Source: a virus
Taxonomy: Duplodnaviria > Caudoviricetes
Virus record (IMG/VR): IMGVR_UViG_3300007734_000748
Span: 769 to 64,768 of that record
Strand: one strand, 5' to 3'
DNA length: 64,000 nucleotides
In this document: piece by piece, positions 4,429 to 28,730 of the stretch
Numbering within the stretch: the stretch's first letter is position 1
How the letters are laid out: every line of letters begins with the position of its first letter
The notes under the pieces: model-generated
Told to the model about the DNA's origin: nothing
The model's input: the letters and a program-made list of their open reading frames with translations, nothing else
Database searches by the model: none
Translations under genes and position numbers: made by a program

Positions 4429-4457
4429 TTTCTATTTTGACGGCGAATGGATTCACA

Positions 4458-7301
4458 ATGGCGGATACTGAATTACTACGGAGCGTAGTACCACAAGAAG
4501 ACGGGTGGTATTGCGTTGTAGGGTTGCTGGATGGGAAACCCCCGATCCAAACATTTCACAAGACTTTACAAGAAGTAGAGCAAGAGGCAGACAGACTTGT
4601 CGCCTACCAACGCAACGCATTCTTTGGTTGCGGTATGTTTAAGACAGAAGATTCTCGCGAAGCGGACAACTGCGGATGGATGAAGTCTTTCTTTCTTGAC
4701 ATTGACTGCGGACCCACCAAAGCTGTACCAGACAGATACGGGCGCATCAAAGGCTACATTGACCAAGCCACAGGTATGCAAGCCGTCAAAGATTTATGCA
4801 AGGGTCTTGGTTTGCCCAAACCTACCATTGTGGATTCTGGGCGTGGCTGGCATGTCTATTGGCCGCTGACTGAATCAGTGGAAGTGAGCAAGTGGCTGCC
4901 AGTCGCACACACGTTCAAAGCCCGATGCAAAGAGTTGAACATCATCATCGACCCAGATGTACCAGCAGATGCCGCACGGGTGCTGCGTATACCGGGCACA
5001 AAGAATTTCAAGGATGACCCGGCGCATGATGTCGTGCTGATGCACACCGCAGAGCCAATGACGTTTGAGGACTTTGTTTCCAAGATGGGCCCGATGGTTC
5101 AGCCCCGGCCAACGTACATGCCCAAGCAATTGGATGAATTCACCAAGGCAATGCTGGGCAACAGGCAGTCAAGGTTTCGCACGATCTTTGATAAGACCAT
5201 GGCGGGCACAGGGTGTGAGCAACTGCGCTACATCATGGAGAACCAAGCGGACATTGAGGAACCTTTATGGCGGGCGGGGCTGTCCATTGCCAAGCATTGT
5301 GTGGATGCCGAAAAGGCCATACACATTATCTCCAAACAGCACCCGCAGTACACGCCAGAAGCCACCGAGCGCAAGGCGCAAAGCATCAAGGGGCCCTACA
5401 CATGCGAAACAATCAATGACTCTCGCCCTGGGGTATGCGAAAAGTGCATACATTGGGGGAAGTTGAAATCTCCCGTCACGCTAGGGCATGAGATTGCCAA
5501 AGCCGAGGAGGGTGCAGTAGTCCCAAAAAAACCAACGAAGGCTGACCCGTCGACATCCTTCGTTGTGCCCAAACTCCCGTTTAGATATTTTCGGGGTAAA
5601 AACGGCGGCATATACATGCACGTCAAAGAAGGTGACGGCGACGATGATGGGGCTTCAACCGAGTGTGTGTATGAGTATGACCTGTTTGTGGTCAAACGCC
5701 TATATGACCCGACTCATGGCGAGACCATCCTGATCCGCCTCACACTGCCGCGTGACGGCACAAAAGAATTTCCGCTGACCACAGTGGACACATTAAGCAA
5801 AGAAGAATTTCGGAAGGTCATGTCCTTTCATGGTGTTTTGGCACACCAGACGCAGATGAACAGCATCTTGTCGTATGTTGTGTCCTGTGCAAAAGAACTA
5901 CAAGTAGCTCAAGAGGTAGAGATGATGCGACTGCAATTTGGTTGGACCGATGATGATCAAAAGTTTATTCTTGGCAACCGGGAGATCGGGGCCAATTACA
6001 GTAAGTACAGCCCCCCTTCCAAGGCCACGGCGCACATAGCCGCCGCGCTTCGGCCTGTGGGGTCGTTGGAGGAGTGGAAAAACATCTTCAACGTGTATGG
6101 GATGGAGGGGTTTGAGCCTCATGCGTTTGCTCTTTTCACTGCATTTGGCGCACCGCTGATCAAATTTCTTGGTGTCAAAGGCGGCATCATCAACCTCATA
6201 AACAACCGTTCTGGCACAGGCAAGTCAACCATCCTCCAGGTTATGAACAGCGTCTGGGGCCACCCCGATGAGTTGATGATCCAGTGGCGGGACACACTGA
6301 ACGTGAAGCTGCACCGTATGGCTGTGATGTGCAACCTCCCTTTAGGGGTTGACGAGATCACCAAGATGAGTGGGGACGACTTCTCAGATATGGCGTATAG
6401 CGTTACACAAGGAACACCGCGCCGCCGAATGAAGGCATCTGCGAATGAGGAGCGGGAAGCCCAAGGGTTTTGGGCAACTCTCATGGTGTGCACATCCAAC
6501 TCCAGCATGACCGATAAGTTGGAGTCCCTCAAGGCCACCTCAGAAGGCGAGTTGATGCGGCTGATGCAGTACCGAATTGACCCGACCAACAACCTTGACA
6601 AACAGGAAGCTAAGCGGATATTTGGCAGATTGCAGAGTAATTATGGCCACGCGGGCGAGATTTACGCCCAGCATCTGGTGCAGCACTTGGAGGAGATCAT
6701 CGACACCGCGCTGTACACACAAGCCCGGTTTGACAAGCGGGCCAACATTGACACCCGAGAGCGGTTTTGGTCAGCGATTGTGGCGGCAAACATTACTGGC
6801 GCAATGGTGGCGCAGAAGCTGGGCCTCCACGACATACCGATTAAACCCGTGTATGACTGGATAACCAAAGAAGTCAAGAACATGCAGGTTGCGTCCAAGC
6901 TCACCATGGACGACTACGCGGCTGTCATTGGCGAATTTTTACTTAAGCACAACCAGAACATCCTCATCGTCAACCGCAAAAGTACATCGAAAGCCAACAT
7001 TGCGGCGACGCCATTGTCTACGCCACGCGGCGCGATCATCGTGCGTTACGAACCAGACACCGAGCGTATCTTCATCCTGCGGACCGCACTGAAGGAGTTC
7101 TGTGTCAACAGGCAGATCACGTTCAATGACCTGCTGGCCGCGTTGAACAAAGACAAGTCGTTTATAAACAACGTCCGCACCCGTATCGACATTGGCACGG
7201 ATATGCACGCTCCCCCAGTTGAAGTGCTGGAGTTTGATGCACTCAAGCTAGGGGTTACCCCTACCGTCCCGACCACCGTACCTGACGACGATGCTGATTG
7301 A
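4458..7301 (+). CDS. primase-helicase (AEP/RepB-like primase + DUF927 P-loop helicase)
   Basis: FFLDIDCG, DSGRGWHVYW and RVLRIPGT primase motifs; Cys cluster; Walker A SGTGKST and Walker B VDE. Confidence 0.88.
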   Translation: MADTELLRSVVPQEDGWYCVVGLLDGKPPIQTFHKTLQEVEQEADRLVAYQRNAFFGCGMFKTEDSREADNCGWMKSFFLDIDCGPTKAVPDRYGRIKGYIDQATGMQAVKDLCKGLGLPKPTIVDSGRGWHVYWPLTESVEVSKWLPVAHTFKARCKELNIIIDPDVPADAARVLRIPGTKNFKDDPAHDVVLMHTAEPMTFEDFVSKMGPMVQPRPTYMPKQLDEFTKAMLGNRQSRFRTIFDKTMAGTGCEQLRYIMENQADIEEPLWRAGLSIAKHCVDAEKAIHIISKQHPQYTPEATERKAQSIKGPYTCETINDSRPGVCEKCIHWGKLKSPVTLGHEIAKAEEGAVVPKKPTKADPSTSFVVPKLPFRYFRGKNGGIYMHVKEGDGDDDGASTECVYEYDLFVVKRLYDPTHGETILIRLTLPRDGTKEFPLTTVDTLSKEEFRKVMSFHGVLAHQTQMNSILSYVVSCAKELQVAQEVEMMRLQFGWTDDDQKFILGNREIGANYSKYSPPSKATAHIAAALRPVGSLEEWKNIFNVYGMEGFEPHAFALFTAFGAPLIKFLGVKGGIINLINNRSGTGKSTILQVMNSVWGHPDELMIQWRDTLNVKLHRMAVMCNLPLGVDEITKMSGDDFSDMAYSVTQGTPRRRMKASANEEREAQGFWATLMVCTSNSSMTDKLESLKATSEGELMRLMQYRIDPTNNLDKQEAKRIFGRLQSNYGHAGEIYAQHLVQHLEEIIDTALYTQARFDKRANIDTRERFWSAIVAANITGAMVAQKLGLHDIPIKPVYDWITKEVKNMQVASKLTMDDYAAVIGEFLLKHNQNILIVNRKSTSKANIAATPLSTPRGAIIVRYEPDTERIFILRTALKEFCVNRQITFNDLLAALNKDKSFINNVRTRIDIGTDMHAPPVEVLEFDALKLGVTPTVPTTVPDDDAD

Positions 7302-7536: not shown

Positions 7537-7570
7537 AACCCCCGCTAGGGCAACTTAGCGGGGTTTTTTT
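7537..7570. terminator. rho-independent terminator at the convergence of the two arms
   Basis: AACCCCCGCTAG-GGCAAC-TTAGCGGGGTTTTTTT between convergent genes. Confidence 0.8.
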
Positions 7571-10500
7571 AATCCAAGTACGTATGCCTACGCAGCACAC
7601 CTTCCAGTTTCGGGTCAATGTACAGCCCATGATCTGTTTGGCTGGACTTCTTGAGCCGCTCTGTGATTGACTTGGACATGGAGTCCGCAGGGATGAACAC
7701 AGTGGGGTTCTTGCTGTTGAACTTGTCAATCTTGTCGTAGGCTTTCTCTACGGTATCTGCGTCATTGGCCATAAAAGCCAGCGCATACAGGTTCAGCAGG
7801 TTCTGGCGCTCCTTGAGGATTGCCTGCTCTTGACCTTTGATCGTGATGTTGTAGAACTGAATCTCTGCCAACTCTGCGGACCGCAGCCCCAGGGATTGCA
7901 TGAACAAGTAAAACGGGCCAACCTCCTCCATCAGCGGGTCACCACGCAAAGTGTTTACGCCTTCGTTGGCATAACGAGCAGCGACGATTGGCTGCTTAAT
8001 GAACGCTGGCGCAATCGTTTCCAACGCCCGATCGGCGTGGCCTTCGTTGTACAGCTTCACGGCCTCTGCCGCATTGACCGCTAGTCCCACGGTAGGACCG
8101 AGCAAGTCAACAAGGAGGGATTGCAGTGACTCAACCTCATCTTGGTTCTTACGGGAATCGCGCAACCACATGTCATCCAGTTTCAAGCGGCTGGCCAAGT
8201 CTATGCCAGCGGCATTGCCAATACCACGAGTCAGCATCGTGCCCACGTTCTTGCCAAAGGTTTCCACAGCCCAGTTGGCAAACTCCAACTCAAACTCAAA
8301 GGGCGGCTCGTCATCATCGGCCAGTCCATTGACCACAGCGTTGACAATGGATGCCACTGTGGAGAACCCCCAGAGACCAGTTACCCCTGAGAAGATGCCC
8401 GCCATGCCCATGGTCCCCACGAACCGGGCACGAGCTTCACGCCGGTCAGCGGGCGTAGCGCCCTTGAGCATGTTGACCATGTTGTGGGCCAGGAAGAAAG
8501 TCATCTGCTGTGGGAACTGCTTGAACTGCAACACCACACGAGCAACCGGATGCTGGAAGTAGCGTGGTTTGTTTGGTGAAGAGTAATCAAACATCGAGCG
8601 GTTTGTCGTGTCCTTTGCTTCAGCAATAGACTCTGCAAACGCCAAATCCTTGTCCGCATAATCTTTGCGCTTTTCCATGGCCAAGCGGAACGCAGACATT
8701 GCCATCACCTCGCGGTTAAACCGCTCAGCGTTGTGGAACAGCGAGGTCAGCATCTCCATACCGCGATGGCGCAGCCCGGTGTAACTTTCCGTGGGGGACG
8801 CAGCCAATCCTGATTGGTCATACACCGCTGTGATGTCGATAAGCCCGTCAGCCACAAACCGGTCGTACGCAGCCCGCTCTGTCTTACTCATAGACTTGGT
8901 GCGGTCCAGGGTGGGGAACATCACGCGGTTATCCCGCAGGCGCTCACCGCGCTCAATGTTGAACCCCGTGGCAATGATCTGGCCAGCGGCCGTCTTCATC
9001 TGACCCAGCGCCGCCAGCGTTGCTTCCGTGTAGGACGCTTTGGGATTTGCTTTGACGTACTGCCCGACCAGAGTGGGCAGACCAATGGTCATGCCGCCCA
9101 ATATGTTGACAATCGCAGACGCAGGGGCGGTCAAGTACCAGATGAACCCTATGTTGGACAGCAACGAAGGGATGATGCCAATGTCTGTGGGGTTGAGCAT
9201 CAACTTCAAACGGCGATCCATCTCGGTAACATAGTCACTGAGTTCAGTGTTCTCGCGAGACAGTTTTACATCGTATCCTTTATTGACATCAATTCGGTCT
9301 TTAAGCTGAATGCGGGCCGCTTCAATCTGCGAGAACATGTTGGGTGAATGTTCAAAGCGGGCCATCTGATAGGCCATGTGAAAGGACGACGATGCAAAGT
9401 TACGCAGCGCATCTTCCGAATAGCCCGCCACATTGTTGCGGTGCATAAACTGATTGCGAAAGCTGCGCTCTGGTTGGTTGGCCAAGAACGTCTGATATAT
9501 GCTGTCTTTTAGGTTTTGCTTTTCTGCGGCAGAGTTAGCGCCTGTGATATTGGCGCTGTCAATCGCAGCAAAAGACTCTCGCAGGAAGTTGGACTCACGC
9601 GCATGCAAGTCCATCTGCTGGGCAAACTCAGAGCCTTCCTTGACGGTGCTTTCTAATTCTGGGTTCTGGGCAATACGCTGGGCCATATGGATTTCTTTTT
9701 GGCCCGCAGACTCAAACATGTAGTACTCACGCGTCTTGCCCTTACCGATCTGATACCAGAAGCGGCCATGGCGCATCAACGGGAAGTACGGACCCTTGCG
9801 TTTGTTCTTTTCAAACTCGTTGCGAATCTCAAGAATAGTTTGTTCCGACACACCTAGCTGACGCATCTGCGTGACACGCTGGTTCATCAACCCTTTGTAT
9901 TCTTCGTAACGGCGTTCGTAGAAGTCACGCACTTGCCGGTAGATTGCCTTGGCCACAGGGCTTAGTTGGTTCCAATCCTGCAACAGTTGTACGTTTCTGT
10001 TGCGCTGATCGGTCGTAGCTTTATCTGGGTCCACTTCAGAAATTGTGGCACCGTGCATGACCTTAGCTAACAAACGCGACATATTAGGGTCGGCAGATTG
10101 CATACGCTCCCACCGTTTAGATATGTCACCAGACTCGCGCAATATATTGTTCTTGCGGGCCAAGAAATCTTCGGCCACCTGAATAAAGTTGTTGACCTGC
10201 GGAATCCTGTTACGCACCAGATCAGCTATCTGACGCATGGTGAGCATGCCCAATGCAACAGGGCGGCTGCTTGCTTTTGCGCTGTTGTACAAAATGGGGA
10301 ACGAACCCTTAACTTCTGCCCAAGAGCGTGCACTCATAAGGTTGGACAACGAGGTTGGCGTATTTGGCAGGCTACGCGGTACAGGTTTGGCAGCGCCCTT
10401 TACAGTCAGACCTTTACGCTCCGTAGCTGGGGCCAGCCCTTCCAGAGCCATGGGGCCAGCCATCATTGCGTCGGTAGCCTTCATCACTTCAATCAGCACG

Positions 10501-13500
10501 TCGCTGTCGGTGGTGTTTGGCTTGATGTTGAAGATACGCCCAACGGCATTGGTAAAGGTGTTCCACAACGAGAACGGCGCTGCTTGGTAACGAATCTCCC
10601 GCAGCAATGCTTGGAACTCTGGGTTGGTCATAGCCTCGGACACAAATTCGTGCAGGTCTTGCAGCCCGTACAAATTGTCTTCGCTTAGCCCTTCCAACGA
10701 CAATATGCCCTTGGCGTGGTTGTACAGCTTGACCAGTTGGTCATAGCCTTGCCGCTGGATGTCGTTGACCTTATTTAGTTTACCTGTTGTGGGCGTAGCC
10801 GCCATCATGTCGATCAGGCGGGCAAGGGCAGCGTGGAGCGACTCGTGCAACAGGGTATGGTTGTTGAACTGAGAGGCTTTGTTGCCGCCTTCACGCAGAA
10901 TAACTTCATCAGTGGCCGGGTCGTACATGCCCGCCCAAGTGAATTGCTTGTCCAGCAGGGCCGTGGTTTCACCCAGAATTTCACGCTGAGCTTCGTTCTT
11001 AAACTCATCGTTCAGTCTATCTACGGCGGACAGGATACCGCCCAACTTCTTGGAGTTGAGGTCCGCAAGAATTGATTTCTTGGTTGCCGCATCCATAGAG
11101 GACACTTCAATCATGTCGGAGAGTGCCCGGACCTTGGCGTCCAATGCCTCTTTGTCGGCTTTTTTGCCAGACAGCGGTTCAAGGTGATCGCTGCCCACCA
11201 CCCTGGATTTGGCGGTAAGTCCAGAGTCCAGCAAGCGGTTTGCAAGCACAGCGTAGTACGGGTTGTTCTTGGCATCAGCCATTAGCTTCAGCGCACCCTT
11301 GAGGTCACCCGTCTTTAGCAAGCTTGCGATGGCTGGGTTGACCTGTGACAACATTTGCACCACAGGCAAGCCTTTGGCGATGGGCTTAAGTTTTGGTGCT
11401 CTTGGAACCTTGACCCCGGTGGTTGTTTCTGCTTTCTGGAGTTTGGCTTGAACCCGCTCCTTACGCAGCACCTCATACTTGGTGATGGCCTCGCTGAACT
11501 TCTTGGCTTCGTTGATGTCGCTTTGAAAATCAGCCACCATGCTCTTGAAAATGGCCTGCGTCTCGCTGTCAAGATTCTTGTTAACCCAATTACGGAAATC
11601 AACGGCGTACTTACCGCCTTCGCCCTCATACAGCGTGTTGGCAGCAACAGATGCTTTCACATCCTTGTCCACTACGGGCAGCTTGTTAAGCTGCTCTGGC
11701 GACAGATCAGGTGCAAGTGCTTCAATCTCGGCTATGGTTTTGCCGTAACGCTGTGATAGGTATGACTGCCACTGCGCCAAATCAGACGCCGCATCGGCCA
11801 GCACCTTACCAAAAGAATTCCTGCGTGGGTTGTCGATATAGTTTTTCGCCGCCAACAAACCCGCTGACAACTCGTCTTTGTAATTACGCAAGTTGTACAG
11901 CATCTTCAAAATTGCTGGCAAGCTGCGGTCGGTGATGAGGTACTCTTCCTCTACGCTGGCAGTGCTGGGTTTACGAGGCTTGCCTTCGCCAGTTTTACCG
12001 TGCACTTTGGTGACCATGCGGGCGATGGTCACTTTGGAAATATATATACCTTTTTGTATACGGTCTTTGACCTTGCCCGCCGCACCTTCTTTTGTGCCGG
12101 GCAGGATGTCAATGTACTTCTTAATCTGTTCGTTGAACTCCTCCATCCCACGGCGGGTCGTGAGGTCAGGGAGGTTATGGTTTGTGAAGAACCGTGACTG
12201 CGCCGCTGCGCTCATGTTAGGCAAATCATTCAGTGCTTGCTCAAAGTCAGGCATGCCACCCATACGGCTGGCAATGTACTTCAGCATAGCCCGGACACCC
12301 CGGCTATATTCCTGGCCTTTGGCAACAATGTCGTAACTCAGCATGCGCTTGAGCGCCACGCCTTTTAGAGATTCGTGTTTGCTTTGTTCGCTTTCTGTAC
12401 CAGACTGGGGCAGGATAGCGTCAAAGAAAGCCGTAAGAAGCTTGCCCTCTTTGGTCTTGGCCACGTTGGCAATACCCAGATCATTTTCAGCTTTGTCGGC
12501 CAGCGTTTGTTCAACATCTTCGGTTGTTTCGGCGCTTACCCTTTCTGCTTCTTTTTCGGGCTGAGCTTCTTTCTTTTCTGCAACCTGACGGCGTTTGTAT
12601 ACGTCTGCGCGTTCAAACTTTACGTCCTCGCCGTAGTCAGTGACGAGTTGATCTCGCATGCTCTTGGAGACCTCCGTGCCCGCCTCAACCGGACTCATGC
12701 CCGGCTCGGTGATCACGTACGAAATTGCTTTACCAACAGGTGCTTTTTCTTCACGCTCGGCTTTGGGCGCAGTTTCTTTGGGTTCCGGTTTTGCGGTAAA
12801 CACGTCTTCAAACGCTTCACCCGACGTAACTTCGGTGGGTTCTTTCTTTGGTTCTGCACCAAACAAACTCCTTTGCATACCCTTGCGTTCACCGGACAGC
12901 AATGCAATCGCTTGGTCGATCGTAGTGGTCTGGCGGTCAACGTGTTGCCGGGCTAATGTTTCAACATTGGCAACGGCTTCACCAGCAGGTAGTCCAGGGG
13001 CTTTTTGTGAAAGTGCCCAAGTCTTGTCGTATACACCAGCAGCCAAATCCTTCAGGAGTTTGGCCTTGCTTCTCTCAAGCACGCGAACAGCTTCTTCGCG
13101 GTCCTGGCCCGCCAACGCCAACGCAGACTCCACCCGACGCTCAACACTGGGCCCCTTGGTAAACATTTGCGTTTGCATTCCGCGACGCTGGCCAACTTGT
13201 TTGAGAGCGCCACGCCCGTCAAACTTGGGGTCTACCAAGTTATCTACCAACGTGGGGTCAAGGTTACCCAACAGTGGGCTGTTGATCTGCACAAGCGATT
13301 GAAGTATCTTTTCAGCGGCCTCGCGTTTTTCTTTGACGATAAAGTCAAATCTATTTTCAGGCTTGCTCAACGCGTCAATCCGCGCCCGCAGGTCGTCGTA
13401 CTGTTCTTTGAACTCACCAAACGATTCGGCAGGAGCCAACTCTGCGACTGGAGCAGCAGGAGGCGGGGTTGGCCTTGCTGGTTTTGCTGTTGGTTTATTT

Positions 13501-14957
13501 AACTCAACAATCCCAACTTGTTCTTGTGGCGCTTCATCTCGCTGGCCGGTAGTACCTTCTATATATGCCTTAGATTGCGTGAAGGGTTTTTGGCCTTGAA
13601 CATCAGCGCCTGTCTCCACATCCTCAAACAGGCCCGGAGGCTCCGCAGACGGGGGTGGAGTAAGGTCGGGTTCACCATATTTGGCAGACACAGTTTGGCC
13701 AGAAGCAGGCACACGGGTTGCATACTTCTCGACTTCGGTTGGGACTAATGCACTGGGTTGCTGTTCTTCTCTTGCAGCAGCGCCTGCAACATCCGCTCCA
13801 GCAGGAACCACTCCAGGGGGTCCAGCTTCTCCAGGTCCTGCGGAGGGTGGCACTGCACTGGTTGCGCCAGCCAGTGGAGCGCCTTCTCCACCTGTTGTAC
13901 TGATAGGTTGTCCAACATCGGTTGCTTCCTTCTCCAGTGTGTCTTTGACCCAAGCTGGGACTTCGGTACGCAATAACGCCTGACCCTCTGGCGTGCGCCT
14001 AGCTTGGAATGTTTGGGCCGCACCACTATATGCGCCCATTGGCCCACCAAGCAAGAGGGCTCCACCTGCGGCTTCCAGATATTCTTTGGCGGCTTCGGGG
14101 TCTTTAAATGGATCGAGCGCCAGACCCGCCTGCCACCGCTCCAACACTTGTTGGGTTACCTCTTGCGGCACTTCAAATGCGATACCTGATGCGGTGCCTT
14201 TGGCCACAGCTTTCTTGTATGCGTTGGGTTTGGTCGCGGCTTCAACAATTTCAAGCGCGGCTTTTTCAGCGGCAGCTTTGCCCTCTATACCAACCAACTG
14301 GCCCAGGGGTTTGAAGAACTTAAACCCAAAAATGTCCAACGCGGTTTGACCTGCTGCCGCAGTCGTTGCAGTCAGCCGGTTGATGTCTTCATAAACTTGG
14401 CCTTTTTTGGCCTGCTCTTCTTTTTGACGGGAGATGTTGTCTGCGATGTACGAGCCAAGTGCAGTCAACCCGTATGCCGCAGTGCCAATTGCTGCGGCGG
14501 GCAGAGCGGCAGGAGCCGCCAATGCTGCACCAGCACCAGCAACCATGGCAGGGGCCATTGACCCCAAGGACGACCCAGCAACTTCTTTAAATTTATCAAC
14601 CGTTTTACCCAGCGCAGTGCCATACGCACCTTGTTTGAACGCGTCGCCAATCTCGCTGAATTCGGTCTGTTTATAAACATCACCAGCTTCTTTTTTGGCC
14701 CGTGCCAGTTCATCGGTAGCAGCTTTTTGATCCCCCAGCCCGGTGAACAACTGCGCTGTTGGTAGGGCTGTGGTAACGCGTTCTTTTAGCGCAGAACCAA
14801 AAGACCCGAAGAACCCGCCTGACTCAGTGGGTTCGGGCTTCGCGGGTTCTCCAACTGGAGTACCACCAAACTGAGAAGCAAGCGCAGCGTAGTCTACGCC
14901 TTGCTTAGATGGAGCGGGGACACCCCCAAACTCGGCTGCAAGTTTGGCGTAGTCCAT
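7569..14957 (-). CDS. large polyvalent internal virion/ejection protein (MPTase-like zincin + PLxRFG-like domain)
   Basis: 2462 aa, last gene of the virion operon; LLHESLH...HEFVSEAMTNPEFQ metallopeptidase; GPYFPLMRHGRFW PLxRFG-like motif. Confidence 0.8.
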   Translation of the reverse strand: MDYAKLAAEFGGVPAPSKQGVDYAALASQFGGTPVGEPAKPEPTESGGFFGSFGSALKERVTTALPTAQLFTGLGDQKAATDELARAKKEAGDVYKQTEFSEIGDAFKQGAYGTALGKTVDKFKEVAGSSLGSMAPAMVAGAGAALAAPAALPAAAIGTAAYGLTALGSYIADNISRQKEEQAKKGQVYEDINRLTATTAAAGQTALDIFGFKFFKPLGQLVGIEGKAAAEKAALEIVEAATKPNAYKKAVAKGTASGIAFEVPQEVTQQVLERWQAGLALDPFKDPEAAKEYLEAAGGALLLGGPMGAYSGAAQTFQARRTPEGQALLRTEVPAWVKDTLEKEATDVGQPISTTGGEGAPLAGATSAVPPSAGPGEAGPPGVVPAGADVAGAAAREEQQPSALVPTEVEKYATRVPASGQTVSAKYGEPDLTPPPSAEPPGLFEDVETGADVQGQKPFTQSKAYIEGTTGQRDEAPQEQVGIVELNKPTAKPARPTPPPAAPVAELAPAESFGEFKEQYDDLRARIDALSKPENRFDFIVKEKREAAEKILQSLVQINSPLLGNLDPTLVDNLVDPKFDGRGALKQVGQRRGMQTQMFTKGPSVERRVESALALAGQDREEAVRVLERSKAKLLKDLAAGVYDKTWALSQKAPGLPAGEAVANVETLARQHVDRQTTTIDQAIALLSGERKGMQRSLFGAEPKKEPTEVTSGEAFEDVFTAKPEPKETAPKAEREEKAPVGKAISYVITEPGMSPVEAGTEVSKSMRDQLVTDYGEDVKFERADVYKRRQVAEKKEAQPEKEAERVSAETTEDVEQTLADKAENDLGIANVAKTKEGKLLTAFFDAILPQSGTESEQSKHESLKGVALKRMLSYDIVAKGQEYSRGVRAMLKYIASRMGGMPDFEQALNDLPNMSAAAQSRFFTNHNLPDLTTRRGMEEFNEQIKKYIDILPGTKEGAAGKVKDRIQKGIYISKVTIARMVTKVHGKTGEGKPRKPSTASVEEEYLITDRSLPAILKMLYNLRNYKDELSAGLLAAKNYIDNPRRNSFGKVLADAASDLAQWQSYLSQRYGKTIAEIEALAPDLSPEQLNKLPVVDKDVKASVAANTLYEGEGGKYAVDFRNWVNKNLDSETQAIFKSMVADFQSDINEAKKFSEAITKYEVLRKERVQAKLQKAETTTGVKVPRAPKLKPIAKGLPVVQMLSQVNPAIASLLKTGDLKGALKLMADAKNNPYYAVLANRLLDSGLTAKSRVVGSDHLEPLSGKKADKEALDAKVRALSDMIEVSSMDAATKKSILADLNSKKLGGILSAVDRLNDEFKNEAQREILGETTALLDKQFTWAGMYDPATDEVILREGGNKASQFNNHTLLHESLHAALARLIDMMAATPTTGKLNKVNDIQRQGYDQLVKLYNHAKGILSLEGLSEDNLYGLQDLHEFVSEAMTNPEFQALLREIRYQAAPFSLWNTFTNAVGRIFNIKPNTTDSDVLIEVMKATDAMMAGPMALEGLAPATERKGLTVKGAAKPVPRSLPNTPTSLSNLMSARSWAEVKGSFPILYNSAKASSRPVALGMLTMRQIADLVRNRIPQVNNFIQVAEDFLARKNNILRESGDISKRWERMQSADPNMSRLLAKVMHGATISEVDPDKATTDQRNRNVQLLQDWNQLSPVAKAIYRQVRDFYERRYEEYKGLMNQRVTQMRQLGVSEQTILEIRNEFEKNKRKGPYFPLMRHGRFWYQIGKGKTREYYMFESAGQKEIHMAQRIAQNPELESTVKEGSEFAQQMDLHARESNFLRESFAAIDSANITGANSAAEKQNLKDSIYQTFLANQPERSFRNQFMHRNNVAGYSEDALRNFASSSFHMAYQMARFEHSPNMFSQIEAARIQLKDRIDVNKGYDVKLSRENTELSDYVTEMDRRLKLMLNPTDIGIIPSLLSNIGFIWYLTAPASAIVNILGGMTIGLPTLVGQYVKANPKASYTEATLAALGQMKTAAGQIIATGFNIERGERLRDNRVMFPTLDRTKSMSKTERAAYDRFVADGLIDITAVYDQSGLAASPTESYTGLRHRGMEMLTSLFHNAERFNREVMAMSAFRLAMEKRKDYADKDLAFAESIAEAKDTTNRSMFDYSSPNKPRYFQHPVARVVLQFKQFPQQMTFFLAHNMVNMLKGATPADRREARARFVGTMGMAGIFSGVTGLWGFSTVASIVNAVVNGLADDDEPPFEFELEFANWAVETFGKNVGTMLTRGIGNAAGIDLASRLKLDDMWLRDSRKNQDEVESLQSLLVDLLGPTVGLAVNAAEAVKLYNEGHADRALETIAPAFIKQPIVAARYANEGVNTLRGDPLMEEVGPFYLFMQSLGLRSAELAEIQFYNITIKGQEQAILKERQNLLNLYALAFMANDADTVEKAYDKIDKFNSKNPTVFIPADSMSKSITERLKKSSQTDHGLYIDPKLEGVLRRHTYLD
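13745..13918 (-). CDS. putative nested out-of-frame gene (57 aa) inside the giant protein gene
   Basis: GGAGAAGGAAG RBS then ATG; product MLDNLSVQQVEKALHWL...LEWFLLERMLQALLQEK looks like an amphipathic helical protein while the host frame is a low-complexity linker. Confidence 0.55.
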   Translation of the reverse strand: MLDNLSVQQVEKALHWLAQPVQCHPPQDLEKLDPLEWFLLERMLQALLQEKNSNPVH

Positions 14958-16870
14958 TAGCCACCTATTTTTTGTTTGAAGGCATCAGCTTCGGCCTGAG
15001 AATTAAATTGGTATGTTTTTCCGTCCGGCGCAGAAACAGTAAACTGCCCACCGCCGCCTTCAGCTCCCATTTCTTTACGCACTTGGTCCGCAATCTTTTT
15101 ACGGCGTGCAACAAGCTCTGCTTCTTTGTCTGGTTTTAGGTTACCGCTTTGAAGTTGGGCGTCTATCATAGCGGTGCGTTTGCTAATCGCATCCTGTATT
15201 GCTTTGCTGTCTTTTGTTGACGTATCCTGTCCCTCATACTTGACCCCGCCAACGGCTGCACGCACTCTGGCTTCATCCGCCAAGAATGCGTCTGCTGCTT
15301 TCTGGCCGTTGGCCCCCAATATGCGGCGGTATTCAGCGCCAACGCGCTCTGATTCGCTGGGCTTGGTAAGGCCCGCTCTGGTAGCGGCAGCATGAATGTT
15401 GGCAACTTGCAAAGAAGTGAGGTTGCTCATGCCTGTTGTTGTCAACTGTGTAGCAGCTTGCAGCCCCTGCCCAGAAGCAGTGGCCTTAGTCGTCATGATT
15501 GACTTCTCAAGGTCAACTTCAGCCTTCTTGTAGTCAGCTTGAGCCTTACGTTCTTCCTCACGGGCCCGGATAATATCCGAAGCTCTTCCGCTACGAACTG
15601 CCTCATCAGCTTTCTCAACCGCATCTTTCAATGCATCTTCGGCTTTGGAGAACGCAAGTTTGGCTTCACGCTCACGTTTGAGTTGACTTGAGTACTCGCC
15701 AGCCGCGCCAGCAATAGCGCCGGGGCGTATGCCCGCACGAATCATGTCGATCACATCTTCAGAAGTGCTGGGGCGAGACTGTTCAAACTCTTGGCGCATG
15801 TTGGCGATCTGCTCACGGCGGTTTTTACCGTAAGTGCCAACACCAGTGAGGTCTTGTATTTTGGCTTGCTCCGCTGCAATCTCTTCAATAGAGCGCGTGG
15901 TCGGCGCAGCTTTTCCATACGCAGCCCTAATTCCTGCTTCATCAACTTGCGGCGTCAGTTTTTGGGCTAACGCGCCAACACCTTGGTCTAAACCAGGAGC
16001 GGCAGCGGCAGGACGTGGTGCAGCGGCAGCGGGACGTGGAGCGGCAGGGGCAGCGGCAGAAACAGGAGCAGCGGTGGGAGCAGCAGCAGGAGGTGACGGC
16101 GCAGCAACCGGCGCAGCAGGAGCAGCGGTTGGGCTGGGTGCGGTGGTATCTGGAGCCTCGTCAAAACGCATGGGTGTGGGTGTAGGACGGGACACCACAG
16201 AACTGAGCAGTCTTCCAATCCCCCCAACAATATCCGGACGTGCAGGTGGCTTGCCCATCCCAACAGTGGCTTCCGTATCTTCGCTGTCTTTAGCAGCGGC
16301 TCGTTCTGCGGCCAACGCTTTTGCGCGCGCTTCTGCGCCGAGCTTACGCATCTCTAATTCATTCTCAAGCTTTTCGCGTTCTTCTTTTGTCAAAGGTTTT
16401 TCTTTGCCCAACTCTACGCGGCTGCCTGTTTCACCTGAAAACGACACAATGCCACCGGGGGCAAAGTCAAACATGCGGGGGTCAACACGAGCGTGCATCA
16501 GCCCACCACCCGCTGCCATCTGCGTTTCTGCTTCAGGCTGCATCTGTGGCTGGGGTACATTCTCTGGGACAGGCATAGCTTGCGGAGCAGCTTGAGCCAT
16601 TTGTTGGGCGGCTTGTTGTTGCTGCCCGCCACGAAGCGCCATGATCCCGGCAGCTTGTTCAATCTTGTCTTTGACTGTGCCTTGGGGTGGTTGCGCGGGT
16701 TTATTGCTCGCCATCTCCTGCTTCATCTGCTCCAAACGACCCAACGCCATGTAGCGGGGGATTTGTGGGTTAGCCCCATTGGCCAGCGCCATCAAATATT
16801 TGATGGAATCAGGTGAAGGAGGCAAAGAAGCTAATTCAGCTTGTGCCTTAAAGGGACTGAGTGCATTCAT
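14957..16870 (-). CDS. internal virion/DNA ejection protein
   Basis: Ala/Gln-rich helical protein with a Pro/Ala linker; directly before the giant protein. Confidence 0.65.
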   Translation of the reverse strand: MNALSPFKAQAELASLPPSPDSIKYLMALANGANPQIPRYMALGRLEQMKQEMASNKPAQPPQGTVKDKIEQAAGIMALRGGQQQQAAQQMAQAAPQAMPVPENVPQPQMQPEAETQMAAGGGLMHARVDPRMFDFAPGGIVSFSGETGSRVELGKEKPLTKEEREKLENELEMRKLGAEARAKALAAERAAAKDSEDTEATVGMGKPPARPDIVGGIGRLLSSVVSRPTPTPMRFDEAPDTTAPSPTAAPAAPVAAPSPPAAAPTAAPVSAAAPAAPRPAAAAPRPAAAAPGLDQGVGALAQKLTPQVDEAGIRAAYGKAAPTTRSIEEIAAEQAKIQDLTGVGTYGKNRREQIANMRQEFEQSRPSTSEDVIDMIRAGIRPGAIAGAAGEYSSQLKREREAKLAFSKAEDALKDAVEKADEAVRSGRASDIIRAREEERKAQADYKKAEVDLEKSIMTTKATASGQGLQAATQLTTTGMSNLTSLQVANIHAAATRAGLTKPSESERVGAEYRRILGANGQKAADAFLADEARVRAAVGGVKYEGQDTSTKDSKAIQDAISKRTAMIDAQLQSGNLKPDKEAELVARRKKIADQVRKEMGAEGGGGQFTVSAPDGKTYQFNSQAEADAFKQKIGG

Positions 16871-21324: not shown

Positions 21325-21989
21325 GCCACCGGTAAAGCTGAAACAAATGAAAGGGTAGCCACAACCGATTGAGTTGATGGCTTGGTGGGAGTGCCAGAGG
21401 CGGCGTAGTATTGAATGCTCACATTTGCGCTGGTGGTTGACCAGTAAATTTGAACATAGTCATTCTCTGCCATTTGCAGGTAATAGTTCCAGCCAATGAT
21501 GCTGTGAAATGGATCTGCGGGTGTTTTTCTTGCTGGCATGCCAACTTTGCCAGTTGACCCGGTTATGTCAGCGGAGGATCCCCCATCATTGCCTTGGCGT
21601 AGCCAGATAAAAATATCTTGCGGGGCAGTGTCTGTTGACTGCACCTGGGCACTAAACTGCAGGTTGTATATACCGGCGTTTTCAACCGTTATCTTAGATG
21701 AACTGATGCTGACCCCGTTGGTAAAATCCGTGGTATTGAGCGTCATCAGTGTGGCTGTATTGGCCGTGGTGGTTTGGCTTTGACCGCTGGAGAATGCCCC
21801 GTAGGGAAAGTTTATATATTTGCCCCCGGTCGTGTCCAACAGATTTCCAAATGCGCTATCTATCTGATTGAAATAGATGCGAAGCATGTTGCGGAACTGA
21901 TCCTCATCCAATTTGACGTAGTTAATAGGAGGAATGGACAGAGCAGGTGCTCTGAATTTTCGCAGAAATCGGGTAAAAACTGTTGCCAT
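21321..21989 (-). CDS. tail-associated structural protein
   Basis: N-terminal helix then a beta-rich domain (AGIYNLQFSAQ); follows the tail stabilisation gene. Confidence 0.6.
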   Translation of the reverse strand: MATVFTRFLRKFRAPALSIPPINYVKLDEDQFRNMLRIYFNQIDSAFGNLLDTTGGKYINFPYGAFSSGQSQTTTANTATLMTLNTTDFTNGVSISSSKITVENAGIYNLQFSAQVQSTDTAPQDIFIWLRQGNDGGSSADITGSTGKVGMPARKTPADPFHSIIGWNYYLQMAENDYVQIYWSTTSANVSIQYYAASGTPTKPSTQSVVATLSFVSALPVA

Positions 21990-24106
21990 CAGCGCCTGCC
22001 GTCCTGGCGAATGTCAATTCTGGGTGAACCAGCTTGCCACTGAACACCCAGCGCAGTCGAACGGTACTCCATTGCCATCTGACGGCCACGCACCCTGATG
22101 TAAACCTGCCCTGTAAACTCCTCAATGGGGACTGTGGCAGTGCGGGTAACGGAGGCGTCACTTGACCCGCCCAGCGACTGAGGCACGTTATACCCAGAAC
22201 CAGAGTTCTGCATGGGTTTGAGATACATTGTGATCTGTGGATTGGTGACGGTTGATCCGCTGAACTTAACATCAGGAAGAACCCGCCACACAAAGCCAAA
22301 CTTATCCCCATCGTCCACATCAAATTCTGCGGATGTGATGAAAGATTCGATTGCCACAGCCGTCCCAGTGGTGTTGTCATCTACGCCAACTTCATGGTTG
22401 ACCAGATTTTTGTCATAGGTGGCGGCAAGAGGGTAATCCCTTAAACCAGAATCCAGCCATGCGGTGCGGGCCAAAGATCCGTAATACCAGCAGCCTTGCC
22501 CCTGATTTTCAGCATAGTTGTAAATGACATAACTATCCACAGTGGTGCTTGTGCCAGAGCAATAGAACCACCAGATCTCATTAAATCCTTCGTTTGTTCC
22601 CGAAAATACCTGATCAAACTGTTGCTTGTTGATGTTCTCAAAAACATATTGGCGCAGATCACAGTTCAGGGTTTGGGTTGTTCCCTGGTATTTGTAGAAC
22701 TTATCCACACCCATCCAATAAGCCACGCCATTGGCGTAGGCAACTGCATTTTCTGATGCAATTGATAAATTATCCCCTACAAGTTGTGAACTCCAAACAA
22801 TAGGAGCACCCACATATTGGAGTGAATAAAGAGATGAGTCTGTCCAGGTCAAGATCTCTTGGCGGGCCTGCATGGCTGTGATGATTTGTGAGCCATGAGA
22901 GAGCAGCAAGCTACCGGCTTGATTTGTCGCGGCTGGAGACCAATTCACAACAGATTCCTGATCAGACCAGCGAATCAACATGGGGTTTTGGGTGGTTGAG
23001 CCGTAATCATTTGCGCCAAAGGCAAAAACAAATCTGCTTACATCAGATACCAAAATATAGTTTTGGATGATTGGCGCGGCAGAGGCATTTGCCAAGCTGG
23101 TTATATTTATACCCCTTGATGATACGGATTGAGTCCCAGATTGTGTTCCGCTGGTATTGATATTTGCCCCGCCATAGGTGGCGGTGAGATTACAGGTTGC
23201 TCCAGACGAGTTGGAAACATAGTAGACAGTGCCCACAGAAAGGCCCGTGGGTAATGCTCCGGTGCTGTTTAGCTGGATTGCTGTTCCATTTGGAACATTA
23301 CTCAAAGAGGAAAATGTGACCACAGCAGGGCTTGCAATGGTAATCGTGACCTCAGACGATGCAACACCAATGTTTGCATTCCAGTAATAAATTGGCCCCG
23401 CTCTTGGGCCAAATATCAAATCCTGCCCAAAGTTGTTTTGGCTCCATAACCTTAAGGCATCTGTTTGTGTTTGACCGTTGCCCCATGTTCCATAGCCCCA
23501 CGGGCCAGTGCCCCACCCCGTCAGGGGAACCGTGTATGAAGGCCCAGTGTTGATCTGGTACTGGGTAATGACTGTCCCGCCGTGCCCCGTGTCTGAAGCG
23601 TTGGCAGTAGCGGACACCGTGATGGTGTAGTTGTTTATGTCAATGACTGTGACTTGAAACTGGCCGGTCAAAACTGCCGCCGTGATGTTTCCACCAAGGC
23701 TGGTTATACCTGCGCCACTATAAGAGACATAGTCCCCGGTAATGCAGCCGTGGGCTGTATCAGCCACTGCAATAACAGCAGAACTTGTCGTTGCGGTAAA
23801 TGGGTTGGTAAGAGTTACCGTCTCTCGAATCGGGGTGATGTCGTTGTAAACACCGCCACGCTCAATGTAAAACTTTAAGTTTGTGCCAACACCCAGCAAG
23901 TTTAAACTGCTAAGAGTTACCCAGTTCCACAGGGATCGGCAAAAGCCGAGAAATGTAGTCGCAGAGATTTGTTGCCAGCCGCCAATCTTCTCAGGAGTGC
24001 CTTGGCGAAAACGAATCTTGTCGCAGTCATACCAACCATTCTCATTGGTGTAGCGGGTGTTCTCCTTGTTTACACCGGGTCTGAGAGTCAGTTTTTTGAG
24101 TGGCAT
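21989..24106 (-). CDS. tail tube/DNA stabilisation (nozzle, P22 gp10-like) protein
   Basis: 705 aa, beta-propeller-like; IRWSDQES, EIWWFY and RVRGRQ patterns, with inserted beta domains. Confidence 0.7.
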   Translation of the reverse strand: MPLKKLTLRPGVNKENTRYTNENGWYDCDKIRFRQGTPEKIGGWQQISATTFLGFCRSLWNWVTLSSLNLLGVGTNLKFYIERGGVYNDITPIRETVTLTNPFTATTSSAVIAVADTAHGCITGDYVSYSGAGITSLGGNITAAVLTGQFQVTVIDINNYTITVSATANASDTGHGGTVITQYQINTGPSYTVPLTGWGTGPWGYGTWGNGQTQTDALRLWSQNNFGQDLIFGPRAGPIYYWNANIGVASSEVTITIASPAVVTFSSLSNVPNGTAIQLNSTGALPTGLSVGTVYYVSNSSGATCNLTATYGGANINTSGTQSGTQSVSSRGINITSLANASAAPIIQNYILVSDVSRFVFAFGANDYGSTTQNPMLIRWSDQESVVNWSPAATNQAGSLLLSHGSQIITAMQARQEILTWTDSSLYSLQYVGAPIVWSSQLVGDNLSIASENAVAYANGVAYWMGVDKFYKYQGTTQTLNCDLRQYVFENINKQQFDQVFSGTNEGFNEIWWFYCSGTSTTVDSYVIYNYAENQGQGCWYYGSLARTAWLDSGLRDYPLAATYDKNLVNHEVGVDDNTTGTAVAIESFITSAEFDVDDGDKFGFVWRVLPDVKFSGSTVTNPQITMYLKPMQNSGSGYNVPQSLGGSSDASVTRTATVPIEEFTGQVYIRVRGRQMAMEYRSTALGVQWQAGSPRIDIRQDGRR

Positions 24107-25802: not shown

Positions 25803-25954
25803 GGCTGCTCCGCTACGGTCTCTGGTGGCACTTGAGGGTCAGCCTGTTCCTTGATGTGCAACATCAAAGCCATTGCATTGGTCTTGGCTGGGAGTTCCCC
25901 CAAAGCCCCAAGGATCATGTTTACAGCGTCAATTGGCAGTTCCAGTTTTATCAT
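25790..25954 (-). CDS. small hypothetical protein after the tail fibres
   Basis: Hand-translated MIKLELPIDAVNMILGALGELPAKTNAMALMLHIKEQADPQV...; GGAG RBS, ATGA overlap. Confidence 0.7.
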   Translation of the reverse strand: MIKLELPIDAVNMILGALGELPAKTNAMALMLHIKEQADPQVPPETVAEQPLTQ

Positions 25955-27225
25955 TTGTTCTCCAAAGCAGTGATACGGTCGGTGAGTGATTGAATGATGA
26001 CTTGTTGTTCTTGAATTGCCGCTGTTAACAGCGGAATAAGCTCCGTGTATCTAATAGTTAAATAGGCAGTAGCGTCCTCAGTATCAGGCATTACAAACTC
26101 GTCAACAGCCTCAGGTAATACGGATTGAACGCTTTGTGCAGATATGCCAACGCAAGGCTTTTTGTTTTCGTCAGATTTCCATGTGAACTTGATTGGCTCA
26201 AGTTGTGCTATCGAAGACAAAGCATCAACAAAACCGCCTGTTACATCTTTAAGTCGAATATCAGAATACGACGACCAAGAAGTTGCTCCAGAAGTTACTT
26301 GTACTCCGCCACTACCTGCCTGTGCAACAATATTTGCCGACCCTAATCCAGATGGGGTAAATTTAATCCATGCCTGCCCACCACCGCTAGCATAATTGCC
26401 TTCAGTTCCAGCGCACATCCCAACGGACTTGCTTCCGCTAAATGTAGCCAAAACACCCCCATCGGTGTTATCAAATACACCCAAACGAATAGTCCCCTTA
26501 ACCACTTGGAAACCAGACGAACTTCCAGCTCCACCAGATATTACTGACGTGCTTCCCACCAGCAAGTTACCGCTGGAGTCGAATGTCATTCCAGCTGTTG
26601 ATTCAGTTCCTTTGAAAAACGCATGACCGCCAGTTGCTTCTGTGCGGTATTTGTTCATGCCCGTGCCAGCGTTGTGGGCAACAGAGCCGTAATATGTTTC
26701 GTTGTTTGAAAAAACAATCTGCTTGTTTACATCAGAACTAAATACATTCAAGCGTGCAGCAGAAACAGTTGTAGTGCCAAGCTGCAAGTTGCTACTTGCA
26801 TTCAAAGTCATCGCCTGATTCCAAGTAATGTTACTTCCTGCTGTGCCTGAAGTTATATTGAACCAACGATGCGCCCCACTTGATTGGTCGTATTGAGAAG
26901 CAACTCCAGTTGCTGCATACTTCCATCCAGAGTTGTAATAACAATTGGCGAAAAAAACAGGTTGTCCAGCAGCTCCAGCAAGCCCCGTTCCAGCAGCGCC
27001 AAGCTCAAACGCTTTGAAAATAGTCCAAGTGCTAGGCGTAACACCCACACCCACATTACCGCTAGCATCCTTTATCAAGCCGCCGTTGCCCACATTGAGC
27101 GTGTCTGTGCTGGCATCCCCCAATATGGTGTTGCCTGTGGTGGTCAGGTTAACAAGCGTTTCTGTGCCTGTGTTTGTCAGGCCCGGGGTGGTTATGCCCG
27201 TTGTGCCGTCTAGTACGATGCTCAT
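25951..27225 (-). CDS. tail fibre protein with peptidase S74 intramolecular chaperone
   Basis: SSYSDIRLK autocleavage motif, GISAQSV...Y.ELIPLL and a terminal coiled coil. Confidence 0.85.
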   Translation of the reverse strand: MSIVLDGTTGITTPGLTNTGTETLVNLTTTGNTILGDASTDTLNVGNGGLIKDASGNVGVGVTPSTWTIFKAFELGAAGTGLAGAAGQPVFFANCYYNSGWKYAATGVASQYDQSSGAHRWFNITSGTAGSNITWNQAMTLNASSNLQLGTTTVSAARLNVFSSDVNKQIVFSNNETYYGSVAHNAGTGMNKYRTEATGGHAFFKGTESTAGMTFDSSGNLLVGSTSVISGGAGSSSGFQVVKGTIRLGVFDNTDGGVLATFSGSKSVGMCAGTEGNYASGGGQAWIKFTPSGLGSANIVAQAGSGGVQVTSGATSWSSYSDIRLKDVTGGFVDALSSIAQLEPIKFTWKSDENKKPCVGISAQSVQSVLPEAVDEFVMPDTEDATAYLTIRYTELIPLLTAAIQEQQVIIQSLTDRITALENK

Positions 27226-28415
27226 GCTGATGCTCCTTTAAGCGCCGCTACATCGGCTTGCAGTTGGGTGATGAGGGCTTGTTGTTCTTGGACATATTTG
27301 ATAAGCGATGGAACAAGTTTTGAATAATCAACGCCCCAATAATCATTTTCTGTTTTTGCTGCACAAACAGCTTCTGGTGCAACTTCAATTAATTCTTGAG
27401 CAATAACACCAAATTTTTGATGCTCCCCAGTTACCCAATCAAACTCACGAATTTTAATGGCTTCAATTTTTTCTTTTGCAGAACCAGCATCAACAATGTT
27501 TGTTTTTAGACGCACATCAGAGCCTGATGTGTAGCTAACAGTAGTTGCCCCTGTGTGCTCAATTCTTCCAGCAGTAGCGCCAGTTGAGTTTGTAAAGAGT
27601 ATGTAATATAAGTCGTTTGTTGCGCTTGTTTCTTTGATGGTCATGCCTTGATTTGAAGCTGAACTTGCAGAAATTGATATTTTTCCATCGTTATTTTTAG
27701 TCGTAGTCCCCACCAGCAAGTTACCGCTGGAGTCGATACGGGCACGTTCGTTGCTATTGGTAATAAAAGCCAAATAGTCAGCACTAGTCGTTCCAAGCTG
27801 CAAAAAACCAGAACCGTTCTTAATAGTTTTTGCGCCACCAGTAACTTCAATGTCTCCGCTAACGACAAGACGGCTTGAACCGCTTGTAGTTCCAACCAAT
27901 AAATTCCCACTAGCATCAAGCGTCATTGCTTGGGTGAAGGTGATTGCGTTACCTGCTGTGCCGGATGGGGCGTTGTACCAATTATGAACTCCAGATGTAA
28001 TGTCATATCTTGCAGCGGAACTGGTAGTTAAATATGTCCAACCACCGCCTGAATTTCTGTACGAATTTGAAGAGAGTTCAAGTAAATTTGATTCTGTTCT
28101 TCCAGAAATACCCGCTGTACTTCCAAGTTGTATAGACCGATAAACGCTATTCCAAGCACTAGGCGTAACACCCAATCCCAAGTTACTACCATCAAACACC
28201 AACGCACTACCCGTAGTCAGCACTTTGGAGCCATCAAGATAGGCCACACCATTGGCTGTGCCACCTGAGTATGTAGGCTGGTTGGTGAACGATACCGCTT
28301 GGCTTGCGTCAATGGAGATTGCTGTGGTTCCGTCAGTTTGGATGTTTAAAACGCCCGAAGTGTCAGCGGTCGTGACTACCCCGGCAGATGTGGATGCGTT
28401 GATTGTTGATGGCAT
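27222..28415 (-). CDS. tail fibre protein with peptidase S74 chaperone
   Basis: TSGSDVRLK, GVIAQEL, VDYSKLVP. Confidence 0.85.
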   Translation of the reverse strand: MPSTINASTSAGVVTTADTSGVLNIQTDGTTAISIDASQAVSFTNQPTYSGGTANGVAYLDGSKVLTTGSALVFDGSNLGLGVTPSAWNSVYRSIQLGSTAGISGRTESNLLELSSNSYRNSGGGWTYLTTSSAARYDITSGVHNWYNAPSGTAGNAITFTQAMTLDASGNLLVGTTSGSSRLVVSGDIEVTGGAKTIKNGSGFLQLGTTSADYLAFITNSNERARIDSSGNLLVGTTTKNNDGKISISASSASNQGMTIKETSATNDLYYILFTNSTGATAGRIEHTGATTVSYTSGSDVRLKTNIVDAGSAKEKIEAIKIREFDWVTGEHQKFGVIAQELIEVAPEAVCAAKTENDYWGVDYSKLVPSLIKYVQEQQALITQLQADVAALKGASA

Positions 28416-28730
28416 TTATGCGCTCCAAGGAAGAGGGGTGTTCTGTGGGCTGACAGGCGGGGTGATCATGCTGTTCAACTGACCTTGTACACATGCCTGT
28501 GCGCTTGCAATCTGTTCAGCGGGAATCCAACCAATGACCGTGGCTTCAGTGAGTTGGTCGTAGGGGATGAATTCCGGGCCTTGCTGGCTGGTGAATTGGG
28601 TGTTGCCGCCGATGAATGCGGTGTATTCCCCGTCCACGCCCGTGACTTGCCACAAAGCATTGACCACATAGTTTGGATCGGGCTGTTGCAAGGTATACAT
28701 GGCCGTGATGGCCGTGGTGAAGGTGGTCAT
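28416..28730 (-). CDS. tail fibre-associated protein
   Basis: FIPYDQLTEATVIGW...PLPW pattern; lies between fibre genes. Confidence 0.65.
   Translation of the reverse strand: MTTFTTAITAMYTLQQPDPNYVVNALWQVTGVDGEYTAFIGGNTQFTSQQGPEFIPYDQLTEATVIGWIPAEQIASAQACVQGQLNSMITPPVSPQNTPLPWSA

Follow-up and report, generated by a model that had tools for sequence, protein, structure and literature searches.

In the window analysed here, the 64,000 bases taken from a complete virus record of 64,768 bases with direct terminal repeats (IMGVR_UViG_3300007734_000748, Caudoviricetes), a small gene of 57 codons very probably lies within, and on the same strand as, a gene for a giant protein of 2462 amino acids (aa). 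The small gene (13745..13918, minus strand) occupies the +1 frame of the giant gene (7569..14957, minus strand). A conserved open reading frame (ORF), selection specific to its codon phase, dual coding and start signals strongly support a protein-coding, overprinted gene, which a sequence-only reading of the window had proposed. The best explanation as a whole, to which I would give a probability of roughly 0.55, is that this gene is translated separately and that its product works together with the giant protein.

The nested ORF starts with the ATG at 13918-13916, which stands at offset 1039 of the giant gene and thus in its +1 frame, and it ends with the TAG at 13747-13745; its codons read MLDNLSVQQVEKALHWLAQPVQCHPPQDLEKLDPLEWFLLERMLQALLQEKNSNPVH. 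Over the same stretch the main frame reads DVGQPISTTGGEGAPLAGATSAVPPSAGPGEAGPPGVVPAGADVAGAAAREEQQPSAL and is rich in glycine, alanine and proline. Coordinates, frame and strand are as the sequence-only reading gave them, and so is the G/A/P-rich character of the linker that the main frame encodes here. A purine run that resembles a Shine-Dalgarno (SD) sequence, GGAGAAGGAAG (13925..13935, minus strand), is located 6 nt 5' of the nested ATG. From stop to stop the +1 frame is open for 136 codons (13745..14155, minus strand), only the last 57 of which are conserved as an ORF; the 79 open codons upstream are considered to lie outside the gene, because most relatives have an in-frame stop shortly before the ATG.

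Conservation and selection in two reading frames

The first relatives comprised 22 loci on viral and metagenome contigs, several of them duplicates of one contig, in which the N-terminal part of the giant protein was found. All 22 cover the region, and all 22 carry a +1 ORF of 57-58 codons at the homologous place with an identical stop position. The ATG is present at the homologous codon in every locus but one (L013, where CTG takes its place and ATGs occur 11-13 codons upstream). In most loci an in-frame stop is located just 4-8 codons 5' of the ATG, and the conserved unit is therefore exactly the stretch from ATG to stop, not a longer open stretch. Further clades were added through proteins from a profile search, and a profile built from an alignment of 16 peptides (A2) was run on every stop-to-stop frame of all 67 sources. 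It matches 65 of them, the misses being L023, of 1092 nt, and L034, a locus that ends before the site. The matches amount to 43 distinct peptides: one stands alone, and each of the other 42 lies inside a same-strand ORF of 300 codons or more, invariably with an offset of +1. As these peptides share descent, the counts show persistence and not independent inventions. Clades differ as to where along the giant ORF the nested gene lies, the extremes being about codon 280 and about codon 820. The sequence-only reading would have given up the gene if homologs were missing or if stops interrupted the frame in relatives; homologs are present and the frame is intact, save in one truncated locus (L063). 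BLAST searches of GenBank phages with the region and with the peptide gave no match, and nothing was found when P0107 was searched in viral contigs and P0140 in genome contigs.

Substitutions were compared in six independent close pairs (WIN-L016, L008-L011, L017-L021, L007-L012, L002-L009 and L004-L006), leaving out L010, L013, L014 and L018, which have no close partner, and L001, a near-duplicate of the WIN lineage. Inside the nested ORF, 14 differences are silent in the main frame and change the +1 frame, against 66 of the reverse class, which are silent in the +1 frame and change the main frame; the mutational opportunity there is about 135 for the main-silent class vs. about 100 for the reverse. 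In the rest of the first ~1150-1250 codons the corresponding numbers are 1769 and 620 (Fisher p = 4.6e-25). The sequence-only reading had suggested checking the gene by such a two-frame comparison, and it is the nested frame that turns out to be under the stronger constraint. In a sliding scan along the first ~1200 codons, the flagged positions all overlap the nested ORF in five of the six pairs, the sixth having too few differences. For the +2 frame the same scan gives two marginal hits at the site of the nested ORF and none elsewhere.

The two translations point in the same direction. Mean pairwise identity is 55% in the +1 frame vs. 37% in the main frame, and it is higher in the +1 frame in 66 of 66 pairs among 12 indel-free lineages. 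Nucleotide entropy by +1 codon position is 0.82/0.54/1.02, with its peak at position 3. A natural variant contig (run X8) differs from the window at 8 nt within 13787-13925; 6 of these are at +1 third positions, with 2 changes in the nested protein vs. 7 in the main frame as the outcome. As judged from these substitution patterns, purifying selection acts in the codon phase of the nested frame, and the nested protein appears to be under stronger selective constraint than the giant protein over these 171 nt.

The giant frame is nevertheless retained. When random synonymous codons were drawn for the peptide of each lineage and the openness of the main frame was scored, it stayed open in only 3-24% of the draws per lineage (product 1.3e-10 over 10 lineages), against an observed 15 of 15 lineages. 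As the main frame is open in all lineages against this expectation, the giant protein is read through the nested stretch. The main-frame residues found there, rich in A, G, P, T, S and V, would then be largely dictated by the Leu/Glu/Gln-rich small gene.

Other open stretches of the giant gene show no comparable pattern or lie beyond the compared codons. The third frame (+2) is open for 108 codons at 13672-13998 (minus strand), the longest such stretch in the giant gene; since it is closed in 14 of 15 relatives, this opening is explained by composition and chance. No part of the giant gene is richer in GC than this region (0.59-0.60, vs. 0.517 for the window). Two other long +1 stretches occur at 14465-14785 (minus strand, 106 codons), where the sliding scan of relatives gave no reversed substitution pattern, and at 11315-11656 (minus strand, 113 codons), which is past the ~1250 codons covered by the relatives' loci.

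The start is conserved along with the frame. An SD-like run (GGAG, AGGAGG, AAGGAG or GGGAG) precedes the start by 5-10 nt in 26 of the 26 lineages examined, with duplex energies from -5.3 to -13.6 kcal/mol and a median in the top 4% of host-gene windows. The main-frame residues over the SD site vary by lineage (TLEKEATDV vs. DI--GGEPDV), and in 18 loci the ATG is spanned by a main-frame GAT or AAT codon, never by the synonymous GAC or AAC. A promoter and terminator scan of 13500-15300 gave no sites, and with no sigma-70-like promoter upstream, translation from the giant-gene mRNA is the simplest reading. From these signals I infer that the nested ORF is translated, and that initiation takes place on the giant-gene mRNA.

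The nested product has 57 aa, a mass of 6.7 kDa and an isoelectric point (pI) of 5.0. Acidity is common in the family: the median pI is 4.8 in A2, and among the 62 representatives no longer than 62 aa, 92% have a pI below 6. Alignment A2 has no conserved stretch of 7-10 columns; its invariant residues are L2, L5, S6, E11, A13, W16, P20, P26, L29, E36, W37, L40, L47 and E50. Of the 43 distinct peptides, 42 end in H or Q, with the truncated L063 as the exception, and so do 141 of the 150 listed representatives. AF2, run with the 16 sequences of A2, predicts helices at residues 7-18, 27-31 and 34-53 (mean pLDDT 82.2, pTM 0.61). The helix-loop-helix proposed by the sequence-only reading is thus roughly right as to helical content, with three helices predicted. 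As a separate observation, contigs from several runs, one of them of 20 kb, match the window over about 50 nt only (13766-13817) and diverge on both sides; this segment encodes the EW..LL..ML helix of the nested protein, and no other DNA of the region is as well conserved among distant relatives.

A profile search among 1.84 billion representatives gave 170 matches with E<=1e-3, 50 of them with E<=1e-10; the majority are 56-110 aa long and stop exactly where the profile does. The exact window peptide is not in a collection of 15 billion proteins, and none of the family members looked up there carries a name in any source. The family was matched neither by Pfam (best E 0.1, in 1 of 16 members), PHROGs (best E 0.089) or PADLOC (best 0.019, in 1 of 16 members), nor by a profile search of PDB sequences (best E 0.2). 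Foldseek with the predicted fold gave a best E of 2.6 in PDB and 1.8 in BFVD, and the ESM Atlas gave no usable match.

The one stand-alone homolog, which the sequence-only reading had recommended looking for, is present in record G001. It has 62 aa, ends in ...STIH and is preceded by its own AGGAGG (dG -10.2); here the C-terminal H is found where an overlapping frame could not impose the residue. The small gene begins 17 nt past the stop of a 2021-aa giant and is the last gene of the same operon. That giant aligns to residues 1367-2439 of the window giant, from the zincin motif to the C-terminus, with 23% identity (E = 1e-52). A nested copy was not found in the G001 record, nor was the N-terminal domain of the giant, so that the stand-alone case is not attributable to this domain. 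The existence of a stand-alone copy implies that the product is an independent polypeptide, and the neighbourhood in G001 is the only linkage evidence that does not follow automatically from nesting.

The giant protein and its surroundings

The giant protein is cysteine-free and has 687 homologs. From the N-terminus it consists of an N-terminal domain, the linker with the nested gene (residues ~347-404), a zincin-type HESLH motif (10833..10847, minus strand; H1371, E1372 and H1375), an LPD39 domain (9837..10274, minus strand; residues 1562-1707, Pfam E 6.3e-21) and a conserved C-terminal module. All 29 aligned giants, which come from five clades, have H1371, E1372, H1375 and E1437; the HExxH motif notwithstanding, no Pfam peptidase model matched the giant protein at E<=0.01. 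Residues 1568-2450 match PHROG 30335 and 10089, which are C-terminal parts of huge phage proteins including 'DarB-like antirestriction', and the DarB-like match is confined to the C-terminal module of the window giant. As judged by its Pfam match to LPD39, the host gene belongs with the polyvalent proteins in the sense of carrying domains of the polyvalent set (Iyer et al. 2017, PMC5512222).

Of the 29 homologous giants in alignment A4 (2000-2700 aa), one contains a single Cys and the other 28 contain none. Absence of cysteine fits a protein that must cross tail and periplasm unfolded. The giant ORF is the last gene of a minus-strand structural module, which also encodes a virion structural protein (21989-24106) and tail-fibre-like proteins (25951-30004), and it is convergent with a primase/helicase-like gene at 4437-7301. 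Its position in the structural module and the scarcity of cysteine would fit a giant protein that is packaged in the virion and probably ejected into the host. Virions of phage JC1 are reported to contain a giant that is likewise labelled DarB-like (PMC9144972). At 25951-30004 (minus strand) three consecutive genes encode proteins of 424, 397 and 425 aa, a 104-aa ORF separating the last two; all three match tail-fibre PHROGs via similar C-terminal parts, and from this similarity they look like a paralogous fibre set.

The C-terminal module of the giant is also found in cultured podophages of 57-63 kb (68 records), where the giants are annotated as DarB-like, PLxRFG protein or DNA methylase. 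In the five of these that I examined (Skulduggery, Mwe-JY07, Atu_ph08, PEp14 and douglas 12A4; L067-L071), the giants have 3000-4900 aa, are 27-31% identical to the window giant over the module, and bear various annotations (DNA methylase, Snf2 helicase, PLxRFG protein or DarB-like). The peptide profile detected no nested gene in these five phages (best E 0.69). As the nested gene is absent there, it is a mark of a subset of uncultured aquatic lineages.

Possible function and alternative readings

Taken together, the observations can be combined into the following scenario. Within the late giant-gene mRNA, the SD sequence and ATG of the nested gene would recruit ribosomes, and its 57 codons would be read in the +1 frame, releasing a 6.7-kDa acidic three-helix protein with a conserved C-terminal His or Gln. 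The G/A/P 'linker' of the giant would be largely the codons of the small gene spelled one base earlier, kept only free of stops. The small protein would assist the giant and probably ejected protein in assembly, packaging or control of processing, much as accessory proteins of P1 load DarB. This last step is tentative, and I would put it forward as a working guess by analogy: the small protein may be an assembly or packaging helper of the giant, or a regulator of its processing. The guess that it acts with the giant is made because the stand-alone copy keeps its neighbourhood, because nesting forces co-expression, and because DarB-type giants, as in P1, need helpers for their incorporation into the head. 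The sequence-only reading had guessed at a chaperone, inhibitor or immunity partner for a domain of the polyvalent protein; the homology and fold searches favour neither this guess nor its opposite, and the one pointer towards it is the place of the stand-alone copy next to a homologous giant.

Nearly as likely as such a partnership is that the small protein is real and has a job unrelated to the giant, for instance as a host takeover or anti-defence factor, the linker merely tolerating the overprinting and the linkage being a frozen accident. All the coding evidence fits this possibility equally well. Many phage inhibitors of host proteins are small and acidic, as this product is, and its nested position, which differs from clade to clade, is not tied to one neighbouring domain. 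The five cultured phages with a homologous C-terminal module and no small gene are in line with it as well. What argues for a partnership instead is that the sole stand-alone copy found still directly follows a homologous giant and closes the same operon, and that no match to PADLOC or to a named family points to a host target.

Several observations weigh against a separately translated partner of the giant, and some of them concern the gene itself. Seen from the window alone, the length of the nested ORF is unremarkable. In 2000 synonymous-codon shuffles, which left the giant protein and the codon usage of its gene unaltered, the +1 frame was open at this spot for 105 +/- 52 codons and reached the observed 136 in 28.1% of cases; an ATG ORF of at least 57 aa occurred somewhere in the +1 frame in 93.9% of the shuffles, and the real gene has four. 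As the shuffles account for the length, I rejected length statistics as evidence for a gene. What lifts the nested ORF above chance is its conservation in relatives and nothing that is visible in the window alone. The ribosome-binding site, which the sequence-only reading had described as strong and purine-rich, is indeed a purine run, but it is of moderate strength, with an anti-SD duplex of -6.4 kcal/mol (top 9.5% of the 18-nt windows of the gene). L064 and L065 lack an ATG at the homologous codon, as does L066, which has GTG, in addition to L013 with its CTG. L063 (5998-6138) retains only the first ~21 nested residues; the final two thirds are gone, through a deletion or a recombination event after which the giant frame stays open and runs on into the next domain. 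This is the only loss seen, and its sequence suggests either that the nested gene is dispensable or that the L063 contig is defective. Nestedness was probably acquired once or a few times. Furthermore, no family member was found in a cultured phage, neither by the BLAST search of GenBank phages nor in the five cultured relatives examined.

Other objections concern the function. Since the five cultured phages lack the small gene, the C-terminal module has no general requirement for it. A gene that has become nested inherits its linkage to the giant gene automatically, and such linkage is weak evidence of shared function. A complex prediction for the peptide with giant residues 1345-2285 and Zn gave a score of 0.00 in both runs, which weighs on neither side.

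As to the origin of the arrangement, it is conceivable, though I consider it unlikely, that the small gene came first and that the giant gene grew around it, two neighbours fusing by reading through the resident gene, with the engulfed protein kept as the giant's controller. If so, the 'linker' would be the shadow of an older gene, and control could consist, for example, in restraining the invariant zincin or in escorting the giant into the prohead. Polyvalent proteins could then accrete domains without deleting the intervening DNA, and their linkers may hide further genes.

An entirely different reading, which I regard as very improbable, is that the 57 codons form an alternative C-terminus, reached by programmed +1 (or -2) frameshifting, so that a protein with the N-terminal domain and a helical tail would result. 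An SD-like run close to a shift site is a known stimulator of frameshifting, as in prfB and dnaX, and the internal SD-like run could act in this way near a shift point; moreover, the database proteins P0118 and P0107 run from the main frame into the nested frame. However, a shift would have hardly any space in most lineages, where an in-frame stop precedes the ATG by 4-8 codons, the 24 nt upstream contain no slippery motif common to the lineages, the nested ATG is conserved over synonymous main-frame alternatives, and the stand-alone copy in G001 starts from an SD and an ATG of its own. P0118 and P0107, for their part, each occur on a single contig, and P0118 differs from L025 by an indel of one base. 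As fusion architectures I rejected P0118 and P0107 together with P0094, which combines a helix-turn-helix (HTH) with the module: all three are singletons on single contigs (P0094, P0118 and P0107 on 526, 28983 and 1238 nt, respectively), and a viral relative of P0094 has no HTH. Probably they result from indels or misassembly, or are rare variants.

Least probable of all is an untranslated ORF, a by-product of a GC-rich, stop-poor linker, of an RNA- or DNA-level element or of main-frame constraint: the chance-like length of the ORF and the likewise open third frame of the window would suit it, but phase-specific selection already contradicts it, as the substitutions follow the +1 codons in a pattern opposite to that of the gene elsewhere, most relatives have a closed third frame, conservation is lower in the main frame than in the nested one, start, stop and C-terminal residue are conserved, and a homolog exists outside any overlap.

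For the overprinted, separately translated gene that I favour, the case is unusually clean: of the two frames it is the nested one, and not the annotated one, that is more constrained, and a stand-alone homolog serves as an outgroup. It indicates that 'featureless linkers' of giant polyvalent phage proteins can code in another frame, which bears on the annotation of such giants, on dN/dS estimates along them, and on engineering that assumes linkers to be free. If the small protein does help or regulate the giant, it would offer a handle on the loading and processing of ejected proteins of 2000 to 4000 residues.

Comparison with known systems

Embedded out-of-frame genes are a known kind in phages; what is new is the large unnamed family and its setting in the linker of a giant polyvalent or DarB-like protein. 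In the literature searched I found no report of a gene nested in a gene for a polyvalent or DarB-like protein; the word 'overlapping' has 0 occurrences in the text of PMC5512222 as far as available, although the supplements of that paper might list linker features. Gene callers skip same-strand genes that are nested in longer ORFs, and this is why a family of at least 170 sequence clusters from aquatic viral metagenomes has no name.

The closest architectural parallel is Rz1, embedded in Rz in the spanin genes of lambdoid phages, where both products are made; rz and rz1 are also annotated in Erwinia phage PEp14, one of the five cultured relatives above. As in the window, a small gene lies wholly within a larger one on the same strand, in the +1 frame and with its own start. 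Rz1, however, has the signal peptide and lipobox Cys of a lipoprotein and is encoded in a lysis cassette, whereas the window peptide has a polar N-terminus (MLxNLS), no hydrophobic N-terminus and no conserved Cys in A2. The host genes differ too, the one in the window encoding a giant LPD39 protein of virion type downstream of tail-fibre and structural genes and not in a lysis cassette, and the two small proteins have no sequence similarity.

In type III secretion, small acidic chaperones accompany secreted or translocated proteins. The window would resemble this arrangement in that a small acidic helical protein is encoded beside a large cysteine-free protein with hydrophobic segments, which is probably exported unfolded. 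However, no fold or sequence match was found.

The model for the functional guess is the Dar system of P1, whose anti-restriction requires further proteins besides DarA and DarB, according to PMC9144972, which cites Piya 2017. By analogy, a giant DarB-like virion protein may depend on small helpers for its incorporation into the head. There is no homology between the systems, however, the helpers of P1 are not nested, and a similar dependence in the window would be a matter of analogy.

Overprinting is familiar from small phages, such as phiX174 with E in D, with K, and with B in A. The likeness to the window is that one stretch of DNA is selected in two frames, one product being compositionally odd or disordered; a general review is PMC8227390. 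Genome compression is a weaker argument in a tailed phage with a 65-kb genome than in phiX174. The roles of the two products differ as well, as it is the short nested product that appears to be structured and better conserved here, and the disordered one that is the linker of a 2462-aa protein.

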